This document shows positions 9,892 to 63,854 of a stretch of DNA of 64,000 nucleotides, in pieces. Origin of the DNA: Escherichia coli (lineage in GTDB: Bacteria; Pseudomonadota; Gammaproteobacteria; Enterobacterales; Enterobacteriaceae); NCBI RefSeq assembly GCF_041886205.1, contig NZ_CP169029.1, one strand, 5' to 3'. A model generated the notes under the pieces. The model was not told the DNA's origin. It made no database searches and saw only the letters and a list, made by a program, of their open reading frames with translations. Position 1 is the first letter of the stretch; each line of letters opens with the position of its first letter. Both the position numbers and the translations under genes were made by a program.

Positions 9892-11037
9892 TTAGCGACC
9901 GCCCATAATGGCAATGTAATCCTGCGTCCAGCGACTGTAGGGAACAAACTTGCCCCCTTCTGCTATAGGCGTTTTCCAGAAGGCTATTTTATCGAAATAG
10001 TTAAAACCGTTTGTTTCACAACCTTTCTCGCCTAATAACGAACTGGCTTTACACCCTTCCGGCACGACGGGTAACGAGCCAAACCAGGCCGCCACATCGC
10101 CCTGCACTTTTGGCGTTAATGACCAGTTCATCCATTTGTAGGCGCAAACCGGATGTTTCGCTTCGCTATGCAGCATGGTGGTATCAGCCCAACCGGTAAC
10201 ACCCTCCTTCGGGAAAACGGTAGCAACAGGCTGGCCTTCGGCTTTCAGGGCGTTGGCCTGATAGGGCCAGGCACTGGAAGCAACCACACCCTCGTTTTTG
10301 AAATCGCTCATTTGCACGGTAGTGTCATGCCAGTAGCGATGGATCAAACTGTGTTGAGCGCGCAGCACTTTCAGCACCGCCTGGTACTGTTCTTCGGTGA
10401 GTTGATACGGATCGCTGATGCCCAACTGCGGCTGAGTGGCTTTAACGAACAACGCAGCGTCCGCAATATAGATCGGGCCATCATAAGCCTGAACGCGGCC
10501 TTTATTGCTCTTGCCGTCCGGCAGATTTTGCTCAACAAAAACCACTTGCCAGCTATCCGGCGGCGTCGGGAAGGTTTTAGTGTTGTACATCAGCAGATTC
10601 GGCCCCCACTGGTATGGTGTGCCGTAAACTTTGCCGCCAACATTGAACCAGTCGCCTTTAACCACGCGGGGATCGAGCGTTTTCCAGTTGGGGATCAATG
10701 CGGTATTAATCGGCTGCACGCGTTTACCCATAATCAGGCGCAGCGAGGCATCGCCGGATGCAGTAACCAGATCGTAACCCCCTTTGGTCATCAGACTGAC
10801 CATTTCATCGGAAGTCGCGGCGGTTTTCACATTCACCGCGCAGCCTGTCTCTTTTTCGAATTGCGTTACCCAGTCGTATTGTTTATCAGTTTGTCCGCGT
10901 TCGATATATCCCGGCCAGGCGATAATATCCAGTCGCCCTTCCGGTTTATCTAAATTGGTAGGCGGTTCGGCGGCGTGAGCGGTCATTATTGTCATGCTGA
11001 GCGCACACAGGCTGCTGCGGGCAAATGTCTTGCTCAT
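9892..11037 (-). CDS. ydcS: Periplasmic substrate-binding protein YdcS (polyamine-binding family), 381 aa
   Basis: ORF 9892..11037; N-terminal signal peptide. Confidence 0.9.
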   Translation of the reverse strand: MSKTFARSSLCALSMTIMTAHAAEPPTNLDKPEGRLDIIAWPGYIERGQTDKQYDWVTQFEKETGCAVNVKTAATSDEMVSLMTKGGYDLVTASGDASLRLIMGKRVQPINTALIPNWKTLDPRVVKGDWFNVGGKVYGTPYQWGPNLLMYNTKTFPTPPDSWQVVFVEQNLPDGKSNKGRVQAYDGPIYIADAALFVKATQPQLGISDPYQLTEEQYQAVLKVLRAQHSLIHRYWHDTTVQMSDFKNEGVVASSAWPYQANALKAEGQPVATVFPKEGVTGWADTTMLHSEAKHPVCAYKWMNWSLTPKVQGDVAAWFGSLPVVPEGCKASSLLGEKGCETNGFNYFDKIAFWKTPIAEGGKFVPYSRWTQDYIAIMGGR

Positions 11038-12766: not shown

Positions 12767-13183
<417 letters not shown>

Positions 13184-13228
13184 AATTTCGACTGTCTCTC
13201 GCATGTCATTAACCTTTTTAATTGGCGA

Positions 13229-13405
13229 TTAACTCAAACCGAGTTGTTTCAGAATTGCTTTACGCAATGGTTCTTTAATCTCATCGCTAGGGTGACACGG
13301 CATGACACTGCGCCTCCCGTGAAACCTGAGTTTTAAATGGTTGCTGCCATTCGCTACATCGACGCCCTGAGATTCGAGCCAACGTCTGAACTCGCTTTGT
13401 TTCAC
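13229..13405 (-). CDS. hicA: mRNA-interferase toxin HicA, 58 aa, GTG start
   Basis: Manual translation of minus strand: (V)KQSEFRRWLESQGVDVANGSNHLKLRFHGRRSVMPCHPSDEIKEPLRKAILKQLGLS; directly upstream of hicB. Confidence 0.8.
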   Translation of the reverse strand: MKQSEFRRWLESQGVDVANGSNHLKLRFHGRRSVMPCHPSDEIKEPLRKAILKQLGLS

Positions 13406-13626: not shown

Positions 13627-13857
13627 ATGTTTACGAAGGCGTTATCGGTTGTCTTATTAACGTGTGCGCTGTTCTCAGGACAACTCATGGCAGGGCACAA
13701 AGGACATGAATTTGTGTGGGTAAAGAATGTGGATCATCAGCTGCGTCATGAAGCGGACAGCGATGAATTGCGTGCTGTGGCGGAAGAGTCGGCGGAAGGT
13801 TTGCGCGAGCATTTTTACTGGCAAAAATCGCGCAAACCAGAAGCGGGACAACGTTGA
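13627..13857 (+). CDS. yncJ: Small secreted protein YncJ, 76 aa
   Basis: ORF 13627..13857; N-terminal signal peptide. Confidence 0.85.
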   Translation: MFTKALSVVLLTCALFSGQLMAGHKGHEFVWVKNVDHQLRHEADSDELRAVAEESAEGLREHFYWQKSRKPEAGQR

Positions 13858-13867
13858 GTCATTTATT

Positions 13868-13897
13868 GCCGGATGCGGCGTGACGCCTTACCCGGCC
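13868..13897. repeat. REP (repetitive extragenic palindromic) element
   Basis: GCCGGATGCGGCGTGACGCCTTACCCGGCC matches REP consensus; between convergent yncJ and ydcP. Confidence 0.7.
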
Positions 13898-13948
13898 AAC
13901 AATATCATGCAGATTCAATAAGTTGTGAGTAACCAGAAAACTGGCGTT

Positions 13949-15910
13949 TTACCCTTTTCGCTTCGGCAATGTTTTCAGCAGCTCATCCGGACTTACGGAT
14001 GCCACTACGCTTCCCGGTAACGGCATTTTCAGTATGTGATTTTTGATTTTGCCAATGACGTGCATCTCGCATGGGCGGCAATCAAACTTTAGCGTTAATA
14101 CTTCATCGCCGTTAACCAGTTGCATTGGCGTCGCCTTCCAGCTTTTGATATTGCCTTTCGCCTGTTTCGGGCACAGATTAAAGGCAAAGCGCAGACAATG
14201 CTTGGTGATCATCACCGGGACTTCGCCCTTCTCTTCATGTGCCTCATACGCCGCGTCAATCAGCTGCACACCATAGCGATGATAAAATTCACGCGCTTTC
14301 TGGTTGTATACGTTCGCGAGGAAACTCAGATGAGTTTGCGGATAAACCGGCGCAGGATCAGCAACCGGTTTACGGCTGCCCCGCTGGTAACTGGCAAGAC
14401 GTGCAGCATCCAGCATGTCGGCGGCTTCACGGCGAAACTGGTTTAACAGACTGTTTGGTACAAACAGCGCCCCCGGCAAATTAATTTGCACATCGCGGGC
14501 GTAATAGAGGGTTTGCCCCAGTTTTGCCAGACCATCCTTCAGATTGCTCATTGCTTTTTCGGCGTTATTGGCTTCGTCGAACTGCCCATCCAGCGTATGC
14601 GTGATGCTGACCCCCTCTTCACTGGTGAGGGTCAGAATCAATTGTTCCTGCCAACCGCCCAGTTCAATGTCTACCGCCACCCGACGTTCGCTGGAGGTTT
14701 TTGTCAGTGCCTGCTGCCAGTTATGATCAAGATTACGGTTTAGTGGGTGATGCGGACGAATTTTGTGCAAATCTGCTGGCATTTCATTGGGCCAGACGCG
14801 GTACTGATTTTCTCCGGTTTTCTCGACCGTATTGGCACGAAAACCGACGACTTCACGTTTAATCATCACGTTCAGGCCATCACCATTTGCCAGTGGCTCG
14901 GTGACGGCAACATCGAGATGATCTTTCGCCACTTTCAATACTTCACCCACCGGCAGGCCGATAAATTTCGGCGAATCGAACGCGCCAATATCGCCTTTAC
15001 GGGCATTTACAAAATAATCTGTGCTACCACGGTGGAATGTCTTTTCCGTCGATGGAACAAAGAAATGTTCAGTACGACCTGATGAAGCACGCGTCAGATC
15101 GCCACGTTCTTCAATAATGGCATCCAGCATCTGGCGATAATGAGCAGTGATATTCTTCACGTAGCTCATATCTTTGTAACGCCCTTCAATCTTGAAGGAA
15201 CGTACGCCAGCATCAATCAGCGCGCCGAGGTTGGCAGTCTGATCGTTATCTTTCATCGACAGCAGATGTTTTTCATAGGAAACCACCCGCCCCTGATCGT
15301 CTTTCAATGTGTATGGCAAACGGCACGCCTGCGAGCAATCGCCACGGTTGGCGCTACGCCCTGTTTGCGCATGAGAAATGTAGCACTGACCCGAATAGGC
15401 CACGCACAGTGCGCCATGAATAAAGAATTCAATGGTCGCGTCCGTGGCCTGGTGAATCGCGCGGATCTGCTCAAGATTCAGCTCTCGCGCCAGCACAATC
15501 TGCGTGAAGCCAACATCAGAGAGGAACTTCGCTTTTTCTACTGTACGAATGTCGCACTGCGTACTGGCGTGCAGTTCAATCGGCGGAATATCAAGTTCCA
15601 GAATCCCCATATCCTGAACAATCAGCGCATCGACACCGGTCTGGTAGAGGTCAGTAATCAGCCGTTGCGCGGGTTCCAGCTCATCATCATGCAAAATGGT
15701 GTTAAGCGTGACGAAAATTTTTGCACCATAACGATGGGCAAACGGCACCAGCTCGGCAATATCTTTCAGGCTATTACTGGCATTATGACGGGCACCAAAA
15801 CCAGGGCCGCCGATATAAACAGCATCGGCACCGTGCAAAATAGCTTCGCGGGCAATGGCGGCATCGCGTGCCGGGCTTAACAGTTCAAGTCGATGAGAAG
15901 ATACGGTCAC
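13949..15910 (-). CDS. ydcP: U32-family peptidase YdcP (RlhA, 23S rRNA hydroxycytidine synthase), 653 aa, GTG start
   Basis: ORF 13949..15952; GTG at 15910 gives VTVSSHRLELLSPARD start; peptidase U32 sequence. Confidence 0.85.
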   Translation of the reverse strand: MTVSSHRLELLSPARDAAIAREAILHGADAVYIGGPGFGARHNASNSLKDIAELVPFAHRYGAKIFVTLNTILHDDELEPAQRLITDLYQTGVDALIVQDMGILELDIPPIELHASTQCDIRTVEKAKFLSDVGFTQIVLARELNLEQIRAIHQATDATIEFFIHGALCVAYSGQCYISHAQTGRSANRGDCSQACRLPYTLKDDQGRVVSYEKHLLSMKDNDQTANLGALIDAGVRSFKIEGRYKDMSYVKNITAHYRQMLDAIIEERGDLTRASSGRTEHFFVPSTEKTFHRGSTDYFVNARKGDIGAFDSPKFIGLPVGEVLKVAKDHLDVAVTEPLANGDGLNVMIKREVVGFRANTVEKTGENQYRVWPNEMPADLHKIRPHHPLNRNLDHNWQQALTKTSSERRVAVDIELGGWQEQLILTLTSEEGVSITHTLDGQFDEANNAEKAMSNLKDGLAKLGQTLYYARDVQINLPGALFVPNSLLNQFRREAADMLDAARLASYQRGSRKPVADPAPVYPQTHLSFLANVYNQKAREFYHRYGVQLIDAAYEAHEEKGEVPVMITKHCLRFAFNLCPKQAKGNIKSWKATPMQLVNGDEVLTLKFDCRPCEMHVIGKIKNHILKMPLPGSVVASVSPDELLKTLPKRKG

Positions 15911-15982
15911 ATTCTTATCCAGTAGCTGAAAAATGGCGGCTATTTTAGCCACAAGCGCGACGTTGCGAAATAGTTTTCCCGC

Positions 15983-24088: not shown

Positions 24089-24312
24089 ACCTGAAAGTGA
24101 GTCCTTCTGGTGTTGTGAATGGTCCCGCGCTGGTCGTTTTCAGCGGCAAGAAAGTGCTTATTTATGACCGCTCACTCTAGACAATATTTATTAATAATCC
24201 AATTGTTGAACTGAGAGAATATGCATAAATCGGCATTTTTTTTATGTCGATGGGATGAGCCTGATTCGTTTGTAAAATCAGGCAAATTTTTGCAAAGGCG
24301 GATGGTCTGAAT

Positions 24313-44241: not shown

Positions 44242-45102
44242 TTATTCTCGCGAAATACCATCCAACGTAGACAACACTTCCTCAGAAAGATGCAATTTTT
44301 CAGCAGCCATATTCTCCCGTAAATGCGCAACAGAAGATGTCCCTGGGATCAGCAAAATATTCGGTGAACGTTGTAACAGCCACGCCAGCGCCACCTGCAT
44401 GGGTGTTGCACCCAGGCTCGCAGCAACATCCGACAGCGTAGAGGATTGCAGCGGTGTAAAGCCCCCGAGCGGGAAGAACGGCACGTAGGCAATGCCATCG
44501 CGGGCCAAAGCATCAATCATTGCATCATCCGCACGATGAGCAATGTTGTATTCGTTCTGCACGCAGACGATTTCGGCAATCTTGCGTGCCTCTGCAACCT
44601 GCGTCGGTGTGACGTTGCTCAGGCCAATATGTTTTACCAGACCTTGTTGTTGCATCTCAGCCAGCACGGTCAGGCTGGCCTCAATCGATCCTTCCGCTGG
44701 GCCATGACCATCCCCCATCATAACGCGCAGGTTAACCACATCCAGTACGTCCAGGCCGAGATTACGTAGATTATCGTGCACCGCTTTTTGCAACTCTGCC
44801 GGAGAAAAGGCGGGCAACCAGGAAGCGTCCTCTCCACGCCGCGCACCAATTTTAGTGACAATTGTCAGGTCGTCAGAGTAAGGATAAAGCGCTTCGCGGA
44901 TAATCTGATTGGTGACGTGCGGACCATAAAAGTCGCTGGTATCAATGTGATTGACGCCCAATGCCAGCGCCTCGCGCAGCACAGTTATAGCGACGTGGCG
45001 ATCTCTTGGGGGACCAAAAACCCCAGGACCTGCCAGTTGCATCGCGCCATAACCAAGACGGTTAACGGATTTTGTACCGAGAGTAAATGTATTGCTGCTC
45101 AT
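44242..45102 (-). CDS. ydbC: Aldo-keto reductase YdbC, 286 aa
   Basis: ORF 44242..45102; AKR family sequence. Confidence 0.9.
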   Translation of the reverse strand: MSSNTFTLGTKSVNRLGYGAMQLAGPGVFGPPRDRHVAITVLREALALGVNHIDTSDFYGPHVTNQIIREALYPYSDDLTIVTKIGARRGEDASWLPAFSPAELQKAVHDNLRNLGLDVLDVVNLRVMMGDGHGPAEGSIEASLTVLAEMQQQGLVKHIGLSNVTPTQVAEARKIAEIVCVQNEYNIAHRADDAMIDALARDGIAYVPFFPLGGFTPLQSSTLSDVAASLGATPMQVALAWLLQRSPNILLIPGTSSVAHLRENMAAEKLHLSEEVLSTLDGISRE

Positions 45103-45256
45103 CGCACCCTGCCCTGTAATAAAACGGATTAAGAAAAATCAGTATAGAAACGAAAAGAGATAAATAATGCGAAGGTGTAAACAAGATTACTGGATGAGTT
45201 GCTCTATTGTCCTGAAAGACACCAAAACAAAACGCGTCAAGTACCGCATCCGGCAA

Positions 45257-45289
45257 TAAAAAAACCGCAACCTGTATCAGCGTTGCGGT
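45257..45289 (-). terminator. Rho-independent terminator for ydbA
   Basis: Minus-strand hairpin CCGCAAC...GTTGCGG followed by UUUUUUU, 20 bp after ydbA stop. Confidence 0.6.
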
Positions 45290-45310
45290 TTAGGGATCAC
45301 ATGCTAAAAA

Positions 45311-48300
45311 TTAGAACGTTTTCTTGAAGTTCAGCATCACGCCTTTGTCGCTGATGCCGTCCTCTTTCCAGTTGTACGCATCCAGATTCAGCGAACTTTC
45401 TTTGCTGCTGTACTTCACGCCGACGCTTGCCAGGCTGTTAATGCCGCCGCCCTTCTGACCGTCATCGACGTTAAAGTGCTGACTGCCTGCGCCTGCCAGG
45501 CTTGCCGTACGCTGGCTCTTCGCGTAGCTCAGGTTCGGCCCGCCTTCCAGCGTGGCGTTCGCACTCCAGCCGTCTTTTCCTGCATAATCCAGCTTCAGCC
45601 CGACGATGCTGTCCACCGCCGTTTCGCTGCCGCTGTTCATATTCAGGTTAAAGTCTCCGGCGTTACGCTCCTTATAGCCACCTTCCAGTGTGTGACGCAG
45701 TTTTACACCCGCATATGGCGTAACCTTCAGTCCTTCGCTCGGTTCGAAAGTCTTCGCTCCTTCGCTACGGAACTCCAGGTACTGCTGCTTCACGTCGGTA
45801 TCAGCCGTTTTGTTCGTGTTGCTAAATGCAATCGAGCGGCTGCTGTCAAGGTTGTGAACGTCGTAACGCAAGGCGTTATTCCAGTTCATGCCATTGTCGA
45901 AGGACATCTGATGTTTCAGGCCAAAGAACTGGCTATAACCGCCTGTAACGCCATTATCACCCGCTTTCTGCGCACCATCACCATCGAGACGAGCGATACC
46001 GTACTCCAGACTCATCGTCTGGCTTTCGCTCAGGTCGATGGTTTTACGCAATGCCAGCATGTCGTATTCGGTATTATTACCTAACTCGGCACGCGGATCG
46101 CCTTTCGCGACAACGTTGAACGCCAGACCGTTACCTACCTTCGGTGCGGCATCCGCCAACATACTAAAGCGGTTGCTTAACACGCGCGCTTCGCGGAATA
46201 CCGTGGTCGCCTGGCTACCGCTGACCTGTTTCAGAGCGCTGTTCAGTTCAGCAGTCGTGCCGACGTTCAGGCTGGTAAACAGTTCGTTGTTGGTGTAACC
46301 CGCATCCAGTGCTTTCGCGATGTCATTCACCGAAGCATCTGTTGCCACATCGGTATAAGCGTTTTTGCTCATGGTGACGTCAACGTTACCGCTGGCATCG
46401 GTGCTGCCTTTAGCAGTCCATACCACGGAGGTTGAGGTGATAGCATCCGCGTCGGTCAGGTTGCTGCCCTCCACCACGTTATCAAAATTAACGGTGGTGT
46501 CTGCCGTACAAGCGGTAAACCCGGTGTTGATCCCCACGCCGTTCATGCTGGCATTGTTGACCCTGAGCTTACCGGCGCTGCCATCGGCACTCGTTCCCAC
46601 CACGTAACCGTTGAGATTATTCATGCCGCCATCAACTGCATCACTTCCCGGCGTTAGGCTAACCGTAGTGGGATTCGGTACATCCGGCAACGTATAGTCG
46701 CCATAATGCAATTCCGTGTTATTACCGTTGTTACCGTTCACGCCTTCAACATTGACGCTGTCGCCCTGCTTAATCAGCCCCGATCCTGTCACGCCATCCG
46801 CAATGACCACCGTGCCGTTGTTGACCACGTGACCTTCTGTACCCAGCACGCTGAATGCAAACGAGTCATTGGCGAAGATATTGATGGTGCCGTTGTTCTC
46901 GATCACCGCATCCGCCGTGGCGTTAGCATCGAGTTGCATACCGATCATGCCCGTATCGGTAGTGCCCTCTGTACCGAGGTTGATGGTGCCAGTGTTAACC
47001 AGTTGCGCATTCTTATCACCTTCCATAGCCACAGCACCGGTGCCGCTGATATTCATCGTGCCGTCATTCTGCGCAATGAAGTTACTGTGAGTGAATTTCA
47101 CGGCGCTGGTACTGTCGTGGTCGAAGTTGATGACCCCGTTATCCAGATTCCAGAAGAATGCGCTCTGATCGCCAGCGTTATTGGCGCTCACCACCAGCGA
47201 CTTCGCAGAGACATCAATCGTTCCATCGTTGATAAAGCGACCATTCCCACCCCACATATTGACAGCACCGTTATGTGAGGAATTACTGATGTCCATGTGA
47301 CCAGTGTTATAAAGCGTACCGGACTGATTAATATGCACAGCATTCTTGTTGTTATCGAGGATAAACTCACCGCTGTTATTGAAGACGGCGTTGTTATTAA
47401 CTTCCAGCATACCTGCGTTATTGCCGCCACTGCTACTACCGAGGCGCCAGGTTCCTTCGTTATTGACCCAGGCATCACCGGTTAATGCAGAACCATTGTC
47501 CACTTTGCCATCTTGTAGGTTATTAAAGATGCCACTGGTCTGAATAATACGTTTACTCACCGTACCACTGTTATTAAAGACGCCGGATTTTTGCACAACA
47601 TTGCTAATAGTACCGGAGTTGTTCACCAGATTAGTGCTAGCCCCAGCATACATTGTCACATTACCGTTGATGGTACCCTCATTATTGAGTACCCCCCCCT
47701 GAGCATCAATATTACCCATCGAGCCAGCATTATCTATTACAGCATCTGGTGCCAATTTCACCATGGAGTTAATAATCCCCGTAGAGGCATTTTCGAGCGT
47801 ACCACTCCGAACGTTAATATCACTACCAGAAGCCGTCCCCGCATTAATAACGCTTCCGGGCACTGCGTCAGTTATCACCACAGAATTAATGAAGTTTGTC
47901 GACTCACCATCTGCCACCAGGATATCACCACCAGAGTATTGCAATGAGACATAATTATCGCCCTGGTTATATTCATCCGCACTCTGACAAATACCAAAAG
48001 TACAGAACCTGCCATAGTTAATAATTATTCCTGTTCCATCGCTGTAAAATGCCTGGCCGATATTTGTATCGATATTAATTACACCCGTTATATCATTAAT
48101 TGCCATACCACTATTAATTGCACCCACCGCGAACAGCTGGTTCTCTTGCTGCTTCGTCACGCCCTCATCTGCGGTGAGGTTGATTGTCCCCTGGTTGACA
48201 ACGGTCCCGCCGCTCATCGCCAGCATACCGAAACCTTCGTTATTAACATTGATGGTTCCGGTATTTAACCCACTGGCATCGCCATTTCCGATATCGGTTG

Positions 48301-51196
48301 ACCCCACAAGAACGCCACCGGACATAAGATAAGGATGGGACGTTTGCCAGTAGGATTTACTGATGATATTACCATCGCTGTCCAGTTCGGGAATAAAGCC
48401 ATCGACATTGATTTCCCCGGCGTTGGTCGCCGTGCCTTTAGATGCGGCGACGGCATAAATCCCCGCCCCCTGCAGATTCATGGTGGCGTCGGATTCATTG
48501 ATCACGCTGCCATCATTACTGGCCCACAGACCATAGTTGGCACCGAAATACCATTTCAGAGGGGCTTCAGATATCCCTCCGGCAAAAGCAGGCGTCGTTA
48601 CAGAAAGCAGATTTATCACGCCACCCGACGCATTCGTAACCTGAGAATTCTGGCCACGAGCACGCATTGTCCCCACCGTGGTGAATTGCTCACCGCTAGG
48701 TTTGACATTAATAGTTCCACTATTAGTGATATGTGCACCATTGTTAGCCATCATTAAATCCTGGCTATCCAGCGTGTTAATCACACCTTTGTTTTCAACG
48801 CCGGACTGACTGCCAGTAGCAGAAATAAGCGCACGATTATCGAAGAAATAGTCGGTATCTCTGACTTTACTGGATATATCCGTTACAGAGTTTTTATCAA
48901 ATATAACATTTCCACCGTCCGCCACCGTGACCAACGTAAAGGCACCCACTACCTGACGGATATCCATAGTTGAATGGCCACTAATGTTAACTGTATTATC
49001 ACCAATAATTGATATACCATCTATGATATGCGCGGAGCTATCCCCAGCAACATTAATACCACCATCGATATTAATGGTATTATTCGTACCGGAAACGACC
49101 ATGCCATTCGCCAAGTGATCTTGATATATTAATACACCTTCCACCGTAATATTAACATGACCACTAATATCCACCGTGTTATTTTCACCACTGATCACGC
49201 CGCCGCTTATCGGAGTGATTTGTGCATCAGCGTTATCGCCGAGACTGGAATTAATATTAATGCTTCCGTCAACGCTAATATGGCTGTCATTACCCGTCAG
49301 GCTGAAACCTGTAGCACCCGGCGCATTGCCTTCGCTATCTGGTTGCTGGAATACGTTAATATCTCCGCTTAATTCAACCTGCTCACGGTCACCCACAATG
49401 GATACCCCAGTTCCGTATCGCGAAACATCAATTTCGCCCACGTTACCAAAAACTTCATCATCACCATCTATCAGAACTCCCACAGAACCGGAATCCGTAA
49501 CAACAATCTTGCCTTTATTACTTATCTGCGAGTTATTACCGGCGATATAAATACCCGTTGCCCCTCCGCTGACGTAGAGGTCACCTTCCTGGCTAATTGT
49601 TGCATTGTGCCCAGCAACTTTTGTCCCTACCGCATTCTCACCGTCAACCGTCATATCCCCGGCGATATTCATCTCATTGCCATCGCCAGTGATGGTTATA
49701 CCGGTGGCATTCTCACCCAAAATATTAAGATCATAGGTCGCCAGGGTAATACTATTGTTGTCGCCGATAATCTCCATGCCGGTTGTATCGTCTTTAACCA
49801 ACATCGAGCCAGCAAGCGAAATACTGCTGCTGTCCCCGGTGATTTTTACACCAGTACCGTTATTTGTCGTGGTGATGTCCCCCACATTGACAAAGGTAGT
49901 ATTATCACCATTGATTAACACGCCATAGGGGTTTCCATCACCGTCCGCCTGACCAACATTGATATCACCAATGTTCATAAAGGTTGTCTGATCGCCATCC
50001 AGCAACACACCGATGGAACTGTCATCCACCACAGTAATATTACCTTTATTACTGATGACAGTACCCTTACCCTCGGCGTCAATACCGTGTGCGCCACCGC
50101 TGACGTATAAGTCACCCTGCTGCCTTACAATGGCATCTTCGCCGATAATTTTTGACCCCGTTGAATTTGCACCATCAACGGTCATGTCGCCTTTGATTTC
50201 AACGCGGGCATCATCCCCTGTAATCACACTCCCCGTGCCTCCATTCGCGATTTCAACATCACCAACGGTGTCCAGCGTGGTACGATCGCCATTAACAATA
50301 ACTGCCGCCCCACCATCAACTTCCGTCTCACCATTATTAGTAATGGTGATATCATCACCGGTAAGAATACCTACCACCGAACCTTCACCAATCGCGGTAG
50401 TTTTGCCATCGTTGTTCAGGGTGATGTCGTTACCGTCAACGTTTATCACAACGCCGCCATTCAGCGCGATGTTGCCGCCATGGTCGGTAATAGTGGCATC
50501 GTTAATATGGAAATGTTCGCCAGTTGTACCGTCTGCGGTGGTGAGTGACTCTATGATTATTTCGATTTTTCCCGCTTCGTCATAGCGCCAGGTGGAGGTT
50601 CCGCCAGGATTGACGCCATTGAACGAAGCCGTGTTAGCCGCCTCGTCGACTAACCAATCCTTCACGATTGTGGTAGTGCCGCCAGGTCCGGTAAGCGTAT
50701 AGCTGCCATCGTCATTTTTGGTGTAGGTAAAGGTGGTATCACGTAATTTTAGGGTCTTCGCGTCCTGATCCCAGGTGACATCGTTTTTATAGACCACAGG
50801 ATCGTGTTTGACTGGCGTGTCATCGCCACCGTCGTCCGGGGTATCATCGCCGCCATCATCCGGCGGGACAGGTGTGTCGCCGCCATCATCCGGCACCGGA
50901 GACGGATCGTCATGATGATTATTATTATCGTGGAGTGCATATACTGCGACGCCTGTGACTGCCGCTGCCAGCCCCACTGCAGCCCAGGGTAATAACTCAT
51001 TATCTTCAACTGATTTACACTCTGCCGGCAGCTTTTCTAGCTGTTCTTTACTTAGTGATTTAATATTAGCCGGGCAGCTAATCTTGCTGGATTTACGAGA
51101 TTCATCCGATGTTTCCGCTATCGACGTATCTGCCGCCCATGTCTGACTGCTTAACGCCATTGCAACACAGACACTGAGCAATTTTTTCCTTTGCAT
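45311..51196 (-). CDS. ydbA: Intact autotransporter YdbA, 1961 aa (signal peptide, repetitive beta-helix passenger, C-terminal beta-barrel)
   Basis: Single ORF 45311..51196; signal peptide MQRKKLLSVCVAMALSSQTWA; GD/GN-rich repeats; C-terminal barrel ending KKTF; SD GAGGA upstream of ATG. Confidence 0.85.
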   Translation of the reverse strand: MQRKKLLSVCVAMALSSQTWAADTSIAETSDESRKSSKISCPANIKSLSKEQLEKLPAECKSVEDNELLPWAAVGLAAAVTGVAVYALHDNNNHHDDPSPVPDDGGDTPVPPDDGGDDTPDDGGDDTPVKHDPVVYKNDVTWDQDAKTLKLRDTTFTYTKNDDGSYTLTGPGGTTTIVKDWLVDEAANTASFNGVNPGGTSTWRYDEAGKIEIIIESLTTADGTTGEHFHINDATITDHGGNIALNGGVVINVDGNDITLNNDGKTTAIGEGSVVGILTGDDITITNNGETEVDGGAAVIVNGDRTTLDTVGDVEIANGGTGSVITGDDARVEIKGDMTVDGANSTGSKIIGEDAIVRQQGDLYVSGGAHGIDAEGKGTVISNKGNITVVDDSSIGVLLDGDQTTFMNIGDINVGQADGDGNPYGVLINGDNTTFVNVGDITTTNNGTGVKITGDSSSISLAGSMLVKDDTTGMEIIGDNNSITLATYDLNILGENATGITITGDGNEMNIAGDMTVDGENAVGTKVAGHNATISQEGDLYVSGGATGIYIAGNNSQISNKGKIVVTDSGSVGVLIDGDDEVFGNVGEIDVSRYGTGVSIVGDREQVELSGDINVFQQPDSEGNAPGATGFSLTGNDSHISVDGSININSSLGDNADAQITPISGGVISGENNTVDISGHVNITVEGVLIYQDHLANGMVVSGTNNTINIDGGINVAGDSSAHIIDGISIIGDNTVNISGHSTMDIRQVVGAFTLVTVADGGNVIFDKNSVTDISSKVRDTDYFFDNRALISATGSQSGVENKGVINTLDSQDLMMANNGAHITNSGTINVKPSGEQFTTVGTMRARGQNSQVTNASGGVINLLSVTTPAFAGGISEAPLKWYFGANYGLWASNDGSVINESDATMNLQGAGIYAVAASKGTATNAGEINVDGFIPELDSDGNIISKSYWQTSHPYLMSGGVLVGSTDIGNGDASGLNTGTINVNNEGFGMLAMSGGTVVNQGTINLTADEGVTKQQENQLFAVGAINSGMAINDITGVINIDTNIGQAFYSDGTGIIINYGRFCTFGICQSADEYNQGDNYVSLQYSGGDILVADGESTNFINSVVITDAVPGSVINAGTASGSDINVRSGTLENASTGIINSMVKLAPDAVIDNAGSMGNIDAQGGVLNNEGTINGNVTMYAGASTNLVNNSGTISNVVQKSGVFNNSGTVSKRIIQTSGIFNNLQDGKVDNGSALTGDAWVNNEGTWRLGSSSGGNNAGMLEVNNNAVFNNSGEFILDNNKNAVHINQSGTLYNTGHMDISNSSHNGAVNMWGGNGRFINDGTIDVSAKSLVVSANNAGDQSAFFWNLDNGVINFDHDSTSAVKFTHSNFIAQNDGTMNISGTGAVAMEGDKNAQLVNTGTINLGTEGTTDTGMIGMQLDANATADAVIENNGTINIFANDSFAFSVLGTEGHVVNNGTVVIADGVTGSGLIKQGDSVNVEGVNGNNGNNTELHYGDYTLPDVPNPTTVSLTPGSDAVDGGMNNLNGYVVGTSADGSAGKLRVNNASMNGVGINTGFTACTADTTVNFDNVVEGSNLTDADAITSTSVVWTAKGSTDASGNVDVTMSKNAYTDVATDASVNDIAKALDAGYTNNELFTSLNVGTTAELNSALKQVSGSQATTVFREARVLSNRFSMLADAAPKVGNGLAFNVVAKGDPRAELGNNTEYDMLALRKTIDLSESQTMSLEYGIARLDGDGAQKAGDNGVTGGYSQFFGLKHQMSFDNGMNWNNALRYDVHNLDSSRSIAFSNTNKTADTDVKQQYLEFRSEGAKTFEPSEGLKVTPYAGVKLRHTLEGGYKERNAGDFNLNMNSGSETAVDSIVGLKLDYAGKDGWSANATLEGGPNLSYAKSQRTASLAGAGSQHFNVDDGQKGGGINSLASVGVKYSSKESSLNLDAYNWKEDGISDKGVMLNFKKTF
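50818..50896. repeat. Imperfect tandem repeat (three ~24-30-bp units) encoding Pro/Asp/Gly-rich linker in ydbA
   Basis: Repeated TCGCCGCCATCATCCGG units encoding PDDGGD(D)TP x3. Confidence 0.6.
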
Positions 51197-62790: not shown

Positions 62791-63726
62791 ATGTCGCAAA
62801 ATCAAGAAATTAGTAAGAAAGAACAATACAACCTGAACAAATTACAAAAACGCCTGCGTCGTAACGTGGGCGAAGCCATTGCTGACTTCAATATGATTGA
62901 AGAAGGCGATCGCATCATGGTTTGCCTCTCAGGGGGTAAAGACAGCTATACCATGCTGGAGATTCTGCGCAATTTGCAGCAAAGCGCGCCAATCAATTTT
63001 TCGCTGGTGGCTGTTAACCTCGATCAAAAGCAACCGGGCTTCCCGGAACACGTTCTGCCCGAGTATCTTGAAAAGCTGGGCGTTGAGTACAAGATTGTGG
63101 AAGAGAACACTTACGGTATCGTGAAAGAGAAGATTCCGGATGGTAAAACAACATGTTCTCTGTGTTCTCGTCTTCGTCGCGGTATCCTTTATCGCACCGC
63201 AACGGAACTGGGGGCGACGAAGATCGCGCTGGGTCACCATCGTGACGATATCCTGCAAACGCTGTTCTTAAATATGTTCTACGGCGGCAAGATGAAAGGT
63301 ATGCCTCCGAAACTGATGAGCGATGATGGCAAACATATCGTTATTCGTCCGCTGGCCTACTGCCGCGAGAAAGATATTCAGCGATTTGCCGATGCAAAAG
63401 CGTTCCCGATTATTCCGTGCAACCTGTGCGGTTCACAGCCTAACCTGCAACGACAAGTGATTGCTGACATGTTGCGTGACTGGGATAAACGTTATCCGGG
63501 GCGTATCGAGACGATGTTCAGCGCGATGCAGAATGTGGTGCCGTCGCATCTGTGCGATACCGACCTGTTCGATTTTAAAGGCATTACCCACGGTTCTGAA
63601 GTGGTTAACGGGGGGGATCTGGCGTTTGATCGCGAAGAGATCCCACTACAACCGGCGGGCTGGCAGCCTGAAGAAGATGAAAATCAGTTGGATGAGTTAC
63701 GGCTGAATGTGGTTGAAGTGAAATAA
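62791..63726 (+). CDS. ttcA: tRNA 2-thiocytidine(32) synthetase TtcA (YdaO), 311 aa
   Basis: ORF 62791..63726; PP-loop SGGKDS motif and CxxC clusters. Confidence 0.9.
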
Positions 63727-63729
63727 CCC

Positions 63730-63832
63730 GGATAGCGCCCGATGCGCAAGCGTATCGGGCTACTCTTATGGAGGCCGGATAAGACGCGGTCAGCGTCGCA
63801 TCCGGCAATCCCGAATAAGATGTTTACTCTTG
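63730..63832. repeat. REP/BIME-type extragenic palindromes downstream of ttcA
   Basis: Palindrome GCCCGATGCGCAAGCGTATCGGGC and GCCGGATAAGACGCGGTCAGCGTCGCATCCGGC (REP consensus). Confidence 0.65.
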
Positions 63833-63854
63833 CACCCGGCAATTCAACATTTCA

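Follow-up and report, generated by a model that had tools for sequence, protein, structure and literature searches.

Two spacers between convergent genes in a 64,000-nucleotide stretch of the Escherichia coli chromosome (the window, meaning the whole stretch of DNA that was analysed) contain palindromes close to the ends of coding sequences. An earlier note had described these as REP units, two in opposite orientation forming a BIME after ttcA and a single one after yncJ, and had suggested that they bind gyrase or IHF or stabilise mRNA. This raises the question whether the palindromes belong to the REP family and to which class, and whether they act on the mRNA, act on the DNA or are remnants of past proliferation.

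REP units in two convergent intergenic regions

The gene names given earlier, ttcA/dbpA and yncJ/rlhA, and the convergent arrangement of both pairs were correct, and at both loci the REP sequences are extragenic and lie between the convergent genes (Table 1). From stop codon to hairpin start, the distance is 10 nt for ttcA (63727-63736) as well as for yncJ (13858-13867). The hicA/hicB toxin-antitoxin pair is located directly upstream of yncJ (12767-13405), as in K-12. The ttcA-dbpA end of the window is 100% identical to strain VE-T9. The ttcA locus was found in 5,388 of 5,426 complete E. coli genomes and the yncJ-rlhA region in 5,411 of them; both REP loci are fixed across the species.

Table 1. 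Positions in the window of the REP-related features and the genes that flank them
Feature	Position	Strand	Description
yncJ	13627-13857	+	
yncJ-rlhA spacer	13858-13948		between convergent genes
REP117	13868-13900	-	single y-type unit; head degenerate, one foot mismatch
L-type BIME-1 linker remnant	13899-13925	+	adjoins the head of REP117; includes the core of an IHF site, ATTCAATAAGTTG
rlhA	13949-15952	-	
ttcA	62791-63726	+	
ttcA-dbpA spacer	63727-63854		between convergent genes
Unit 1	63737-63763	-	diverged z2-type REP with C:G foot pair; inverted REP (iREP) in ttcA mRNA
Linker TCTTAT	63764-63769		6 nt between the head tetranucleotides; too short for an L (IHF) linker
Unit 2 (REP115)	63770-63809	+	head, palindrome and tail AAT
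Decayed y-type relic	63811-63843	+	direct orientation after unit 2
dbpA stop codon	63855-63857	-	

REP models were built from five 50-kb pieces of K-12 MG1655 distant from both loci, in which 26 REPs were harvested by foot sequence. This sample yielded all three published classes, as described in PMC3333891: y (GTAG-GCCGGATAAGGCGTT(C/T)ACGCCGCATCCGGC), z1 (GTAG-GCCTGATAAGACGCG...GCGTCGCATCAGGC) and z2 (GTAG-GCCTGATAAGCGTAGCGCATCAGGC). An exact, correctly placed GTAG head was present in only 21 of the 26 sample REPs, so that a mutated head is compatible with membership of the family.

A covariance model (R1) was trained on the 26 REPs and used to scan the full 64-kb window on both strands. Unit 2 scored 60.2 bits (E=1.2e-15, + strand) and the yncJ unit, REP117, 44.5 bits (E=6e-11, - strand); with a sequence profile the two reached 45.2 bits (E=2e-12) and 26.5 bits (E=1.3e-6), respectively. 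Unit 1 gave no match to the sequence profile; with R1 it scored 13.5 bits (E=0.11, - strand), which was the third best match in the window and had the expected orientation. Compared with the K-12 z2 consensus, unit 1 scored 15, the maximum among 2,114 background windows being 13. Two other weak R1 matches (10250-10276 and 24255-24287; E>0.1) lack the REP upper stem. A strict consensus of the Stern type, with a fixed loop, returned 0 matches at up to 3 mismatches; such a pattern is uninformative, since loop lengths differ between REP classes.

The palindrome with foot GCC(G/T)GAT...ATC(C/A)GGC is exact in unit 2 and has one mismatch in REP117 (ACC for ATC), and unit 1 matches it with C:G as the variable pair. 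In none of the three units is GTAG found directly 5' of the foot: the head is GGAG in unit 2 and GTTG in REP117 (GCCT in K-12), and the GTAG of unit 1 overlaps the foot by 1 nt. In BLAST searches the sequence type of unit 2 occurred at no fewer than 40 places per E. coli genome among the matches listed, and that of REP117 at 37 or more places per genome (median at least 40), again among the matches listed. For the unit 1 type, the median number of places in an E. coli genome was 2. Half-model matches to naRNA4 (RF02564), which was built from REP325 and is the sole Rfam family of REP origin, were obtained for unit 2 (27.7 bits) and REP117 (30.9 bits), each covering one hairpin of the two-hairpin model; neither reached the gathering threshold of 59.5 bits, and the Rfam search gave no match for unit 1.

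In the copy of the K-12 RefSeq record used here, NC_000913.3, REP repeat_region features are absent, also from the yaaX-yaaA spacer, the site of a REP1 annotation. The positions of the K-12 REPs come from supplementary tables (Harris et al. 2026, bioRxiv 10.64898/2026.03.23.713779). According to these, REP115 lies between convergent ttcA and dbpA (1410934-1410970) and REP117 between convergent yncJ and rlhA (1508792-1508824). Aligned to the window, these correspond to 63769-63805, i.e. unit 2 only, and to 13867-13899. Loci, flanking genes and sequence are thus the same or nearly so. However, the REP115 annotation covers 37 nt and leaves unit 1 and the y-type relic outside its coordinates, and the motif adjoining REP117 likewise falls outside the annotated REP117. 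The comparison with K-12 therefore agreed with the earlier note in having a REP at each locus, the one past yncJ being a single unit indeed, but K-12 has one annotated unit after ttcA and not two. In addition, position 63832, where the interval of that note ended, falls inside the third, decayed unit.

Taken together, all three units are almost certainly chromosomal REP (palindromic unit) repeats. Both loci are annotated REPs in K-12, and the kind of element is already known. The interpretation as a whole, REP repeats at two convergent spacers with a role as 3'-UTR hairpins and the points connected with it, we regard as very probable.

REPs were sparse in the 64-kb window, with two strong units and one diverged; the 250 kb of K-12 that were sampled contained 41 units scoring 25 bits or more. 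At 45230-45257 lies a truncated REP, ACGCGTCAAGTACCGCATCCGGCAAT (18 bits, E=6e-4), of which the 3' half is present and the 5' arm is absent; a terminator-like A-run, hairpin and T-run directly follows it. Both together (45230-45292) are located in the spacer between two ORFs on the - strand (44242-45102 and 45311-51196).

Class and architecture of the units

The palindrome of unit 1 (63737-63760) reads GCCCGATGCGCAAGCGTATCGGGC and is followed by TAC at 63761-63763. Its head CTAC lies at 63760-63763 and shares 1 nt with the foot, which amounts to a deletion of 1 nt from the canonical GGCCTAC. The RNA is predicted to fold into a 10-bp stem (-18.7 kcal/mol, z=-2.9). The second place in E. coli that matches unit 1 is the yggR-ruvX spacer, where the sequence is GCCCGATGCGCAAGCTTATCGGGC-CTAC, with a canonical head; K-12 carries the same copy. 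This paralogue is 23/24 identical to unit 1, and the other members of its REP cluster are z1-like and y-like. In K-12, the REP hairpin after yggR starts 9 nt past the stop codon (L141, about 1591-1600).

One genome per species was scanned with the pattern GCCCGATGCG-N(2-8)-GCNTATCGGGC, which was derived from unit 1 and does not include GTAG, so that the GTAG heads, y partners and arrays of the loci found are independent features. Three to five loci each were present in E. albertii, E. whittamii, Escherichia sp. E1V33 and the divergent "E. coli" SCPM-O-B-8794, and further loci in Citrobacter, Pseudocitrobacter and Enterobacter. An exact GTAG head was carried by 22 of the 30 distinct copies, most of which are head-to-head with a y REP. 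Citrobacter youngae ATCC 29220 contains tandem arrays with a period of 85 nt in which the C:G-foot z2 unit alternates with a y REP, one of at least 5 repeats (L036 2051-2415) and one of at least 3 (L037 20-214). Such an array is BIME-2-like; in E. coli the variant on which it is built is present almost as a single copy. Unit 1 is identical to the consensus of the variant at other loci at 26 of 27 positions, with one gap. It differs from the common C:G-foot form by a substitution (TTATC to GTATC) and by the loss of 1 nt where the foot meets the head (GGGCCTAC to GGGCTAC); the ttcA orthologue of SCPM-O-B-8794 has the same head deletion and has kept the canonical TTATC.

It could be argued that unit 1 is not derived from a REP and is an unrelated ttcA 3'-UTR hairpin that lies next to REP115 by chance. 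It is absent from the K-12 REP annotation, matches neither the sequence-only REP profile nor an Rfam family and has about 2 copies per genome. However, its foot shares 12 of 14 bases with that of REPs, complementarity has been kept at the variable pair, the GATA/GCATC asymmetry and the CTAC head are correctly positioned, and it is nearly identical to a copy within a REP cluster and to a variant that builds BIME arrays with y REPs in Citrobacter. A chance origin is thus highly unlikely. It can be recognised as a REP only by way of the yggR-ruvX paralogue and the copies found in other enterobacteria. Judged by its sequence, unit 1 is a z2-type palindromic unit with C:G in place of T:A at the variable pair of the foot, a subclass that is missing from the K-12 annotation at least at the ttcA site.

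Unit 2 consists of the head GGAG (63770-63773), a mutated GTAG, and an imperfect palindrome of 33 nt (63774-63806), GCCGGATAAGACGCGGTCAGCGTCGCATCCGGC. It is a hybrid, its G:C foot being that of y units and its upper stem that of z1 units, and its head is not GTAG; the same hybrid occurs at two further K-12 loci (L008:34638-34670 and L008:31302-31334). Its predicted RNA hairpin is strong (-26.5 kcal/mol, z=-5.1), and it differs from K-12 REP115 by 1 nt, in the loop. Decay of unit 2 was seen in strain 115 (three foot changes) and in AVS0247 (a 1-nt foot deletion). The sequence that follows (63811-63843) has 26 of 33 positions in common with the y consensus, at a score of 18 where the background did not exceed 14; it forms no hairpin (-3.2 kcal/mol, z=0.1) and has lost 13-14 nt in the orthologous spacer of SCPM-O-B-8794. 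It is a dead y unit, and its direct orientation is itself unusual.

In REP117 the palindrome (13868-13896) reads GCCGGATGCGGCGTGACGCCTTACCCGGC and is followed by CAAC at 13897-13900, one change from the canonical CTAC; K-12 and six other aligned strains have AGGC at this place. The predicted fold has -15.7 kcal/mol. Compared with K-12, 1 nt differs in the loop, in addition to differences in the flanks. With a 42-nt query from the window, 433 records were at least 99% identical, and the strain alignment showed uncompensated stem changes in APEC, U14A, LF82 and 83972. A profile (HMM) of five K-12 L linkers had its best match in the window at 13899-13925 (10.5 bits, E=0.067), in register with the REP117 head. 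REP117 and this remnant together make a 'half BIME-1'. No significant second REP unit was found past the linker; a candidate overlapping the rlhA 3' end (13925-13975) was rejected, its y-consensus score of 11 being only the 99th percentile of background.

Units 1 and 2 are inverted relative to each other, as had been stated, and lie head-to-head with 13 nt from foot to foot. In the K-12 sample all 23 adjacent REP pairs alternate in orientation, and 16 head-to-head gaps measured 17-24 or 41-43 nt, all of them wider than 13 nt. As in the y, z1 and z2 units and BIMEs described in the literature (Bachellier et al.; Ton-Hoang et al. 2012, PMC3333891), the units studied here are imperfect palindromes on GCCNGAT/ATCNGGC feet and carry both an internal mismatch and a tetranucleotide head; the ttcA units are inverted head-to-head, unit 1 is z2-like and REP117 is a y-type unit with an L-like linker. 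Unlike those elements, unit 2 is a y-foot/z1-stem hybrid with GGAG, unit 1 has a C:G foot pair, and the pair is single-copy with a linker shorter than in every sampled BIME. A BIME-1 consists of a y and an inverse z1 unit with a long L linker containing an IHF site, but no IHF consensus was found in the ttcA pair, whose linker measures 6 nt, and at yncJ a y unit and an L-like motif are found with no second unit. A BIME-2 combines z2 and y with an S linker, usually in tandem, whereas the ttcA pair is present once, has a z1-like upper stem in the partner and a gap of 13 nt. The pair is therefore neither a BIME-1 nor a BIME-2 and fits the 'atypical' BIMEs at best. Of the BIME proposed past ttcA, the inverted pair holds, in an atypical, minimal and single-copy form that lacks an L linker.

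Probable role of the hairpins at transcript ends

Transcript 3' ends in K-12 have been mapped by SEnd-seq (Ju et al. 2019). Table 16 of Harris et al. 2026 (bioRxiv 10.64898/2026.03.23.713779) re-tabulates the bidirectional terminators of this earlier study (ref. 47), and its entry 113 is a terminator at K-12 1410927-1410973, detected in log and stationary phase, with REP115 as the hairpin. The overlap region corresponds to 63766-63812 of the window. On these K-12 data, the ends that flank unit 2 would lie near 63812 for ttcA transcripts and near 63766 for dbpA transcripts, so that only the ttcA mRNA would contain unit 1. SEnd-seq 3' ends do not distinguish true termination from trimming; like the Rho data below, they were obtained in K-12 and are carried over to the window strain by near-identical sequence. 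The earlier proposal of a role at mRNA 3' ends has with this entry direct published support for REP115. REP117 does not occur among the bidirectional terminators listed in that table.

Table 15 of the same source lists a Rho rut peak (1410799-1411007, ttcA-sense strand) that overlaps REP115 and a bicyclomycin-sensitive transcript, and rut peaks are given at 27 and 87 nt from REP117 (Harris et al. 2026). In our own analysis, no T-run indicative of an intrinsic terminator followed unit 1, unit 2 or REP117, and a terminator scan found one weak site at the ttcA locus, 0.7 being expected from shuffled sequence, and none at the yncJ locus.

The convergent ttcA and dbpA mRNAs of K-12 share the REP115 hairpin as their 3' end. 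Carried over by sequence, the ttcA transcript would cross both hairpins and end about 6 nt past REP115, and the dbpA transcript would end about 8 nt past the REP115 hairpin on the other strand. Rho would terminate transcription downstream of the hairpin, as suggested by the rut peak and the bicyclomycin-sensitive transcript that overlap the REP115 site; 3'-exonucleases would then trim the RNA back to the hairpin, which would protect the mRNA. This dual model of partly Rho-dependent terminator and stabiliser was adopted from REP325/naRNA4 (RF02564), which is made of the same palindromic units and for which both functions have been proposed (Harris et al. 2026). REP325 differs in being a cluster of six repeats between tandem genes, whereas here one to two units are found between convergent genes. 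The same authors report that terminal REPs have no general effect on mRNA half-life. The units are therefore likely to act after transcription, as stable hairpins in the 3' UTR by which mRNA ends are defined or stabilised.

REPs less than 16 nt from a stop codon have been reported to stall ribosomes and to lower translation (Liang et al. 2015, cited in PMC12306157). The hairpins after ttcA and yncJ fall inside this range. An effect on the translation of ttcA and yncJ, extrapolated from this distance rule, is conceivable but rather doubtful.

Mobility, alternative readings and meaning

The REP transposase TnpA-REP (RAYT) needs GTAG and a stem mismatch for binding and cleavage, and a CT cleavage site is located at the inverted partner (PMC3333891). 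Because all three heads differ from a correctly spaced GTAG, mobilisation of the units by RAYT/TnpA-REP is unlikely, and they would seem to be immobile fossils. The ttcA pair resembles a REPIN (Bertels & Rainey 2011; Nunvar et al. 2010) in having two inverted REPs with a short spacer. Unlike in a REPIN, however, its two arms are of different REP class and both lack a correctly spaced GTAG. Nothing indicates that the locus, fixed in about 99% of 5,426 genomes, has moved recently.

Alleles of unit 1 were counted over 5,392 E. coli records at the two polymorphic stem sites, 63744 and 63752. An ancestral-like form with a two-mismatch REP-like stem (GATG...GCTTATC) was found in 490 records; this form has been kept in the outgroup orthologue and in the yggR paralogue. 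The form of the window and K-12 (GATG...GCGTATC), which has lost one of the two mismatches, was found in 3,505 records, and a perfect palindrome that has lost both (GATA...GCGTATC) in 674. Both derived changes add a base pair. Unit 1 may have been recruited from the REPs to serve ttcA as a 3'-UTR hairpin of its own, selection having shifted from mobility to RNA structure. This is suggested by the stepwise loss, in E. coli alleles, of the stem mismatches that the transposase needs and by the position of the hairpin 10 nt past the stop codon, within the reported stalling range; on balance we consider it unlikely. Selection on REP117 and unit 2 may be weak, given the uncompensated stem changes in the former and the foot changes of the latter in strain 115 and AVS0247. 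Constraint is uneven among the units, and REP117 may be a largely neutral fossil.

Three other readings bear on the role of the hairpins. The REP115 hairpin might be a factor-independent bidirectional terminator at which the polymerase stops both ways, its REP ancestry being incidental. The SEnd-seq screen of Ju et al., as tabulated in Harris et al., and the strength of the hairpin on both strands are in line with this, but no U-tract follows the REP115 stem on either strand (the flanks listed are UAUUCG and AUAAGAGU), the terminator scan gave a single weak site, no more than in shuffled sequence, and the rut peak and bicyclomycin-sensitive transcript at REP115 point to Rho. We consider such a terminator improbable. 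Even less probable is an action at the DNA level, in which gyrase, IHF or other nucleoid-protein sites would manage supercoiling between the convergent units. Gyrase is known to bind BIMEs (Yang & Ames 1988; Espeli & Boccard 1997). An IHF site is frequent in the L linkers of BIME-1 (PMC3333891), and REP117 is followed, in register with its head, by such a linker, which carries the IHF core ATTCAATAAGTTG. The ttcA pair, however, contains no IHF consensus within one mismatch and has a linker of only 6 nt, so that the IHF binding suggested earlier finds a candidate site beside REP117 and none after ttcA. IHF-like matches occurred over the window at chance frequency (76 versus 64 +/- 8), the pair is single-copy, unlike the multi-copy BIME-2 that binds gyrase best, and Harris et al. 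2026 report that there are no chromosomal contacts between REPs and no nucleoid compaction by REP325.

A stronger contender, still less probable than a role at the 3' end, is that the units are functionless fossils of REP proliferation. Their near-universality would then reflect shallow divergence, and the ends at REP115 would be the passive result of any stable hairpin. The mutated heads of all three units are in accordance with this, as are the dead relic (63811-63843), the truncated REP at 45230-45257, the uncompensated mutations in the REP117 stem and the decay of unit 2 in strains 115 and AVS0247. On the other hand, both derived changes in unit 1 increase pairing in the alleles counted above, and REP-bearing convergent gene pairs show higher expression genome-wide. 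A 3'-UTR hairpin at the mRNA end remains the reading that we prefer.

No repeats of E. coli are more abundant than REPs or have been known for longer, and in K-12 the two loci have been given REP numbers before, so that the meaning of these results is mostly limited to annotation hygiene. What is added is an unannotated inverted partner after ttcA, which belongs to a minor C:G-foot z2 variant common to other enterobacteria, as well as a dead y-type relic and an L-type (IHF) linker beside REP117. For expression studies of ttcA, dbpA and yncJ it is useful to know that REP115 is a shared 3' end in K-12 and that stable hairpins start 10 nt past the stop codons of ttcA and yncJ.
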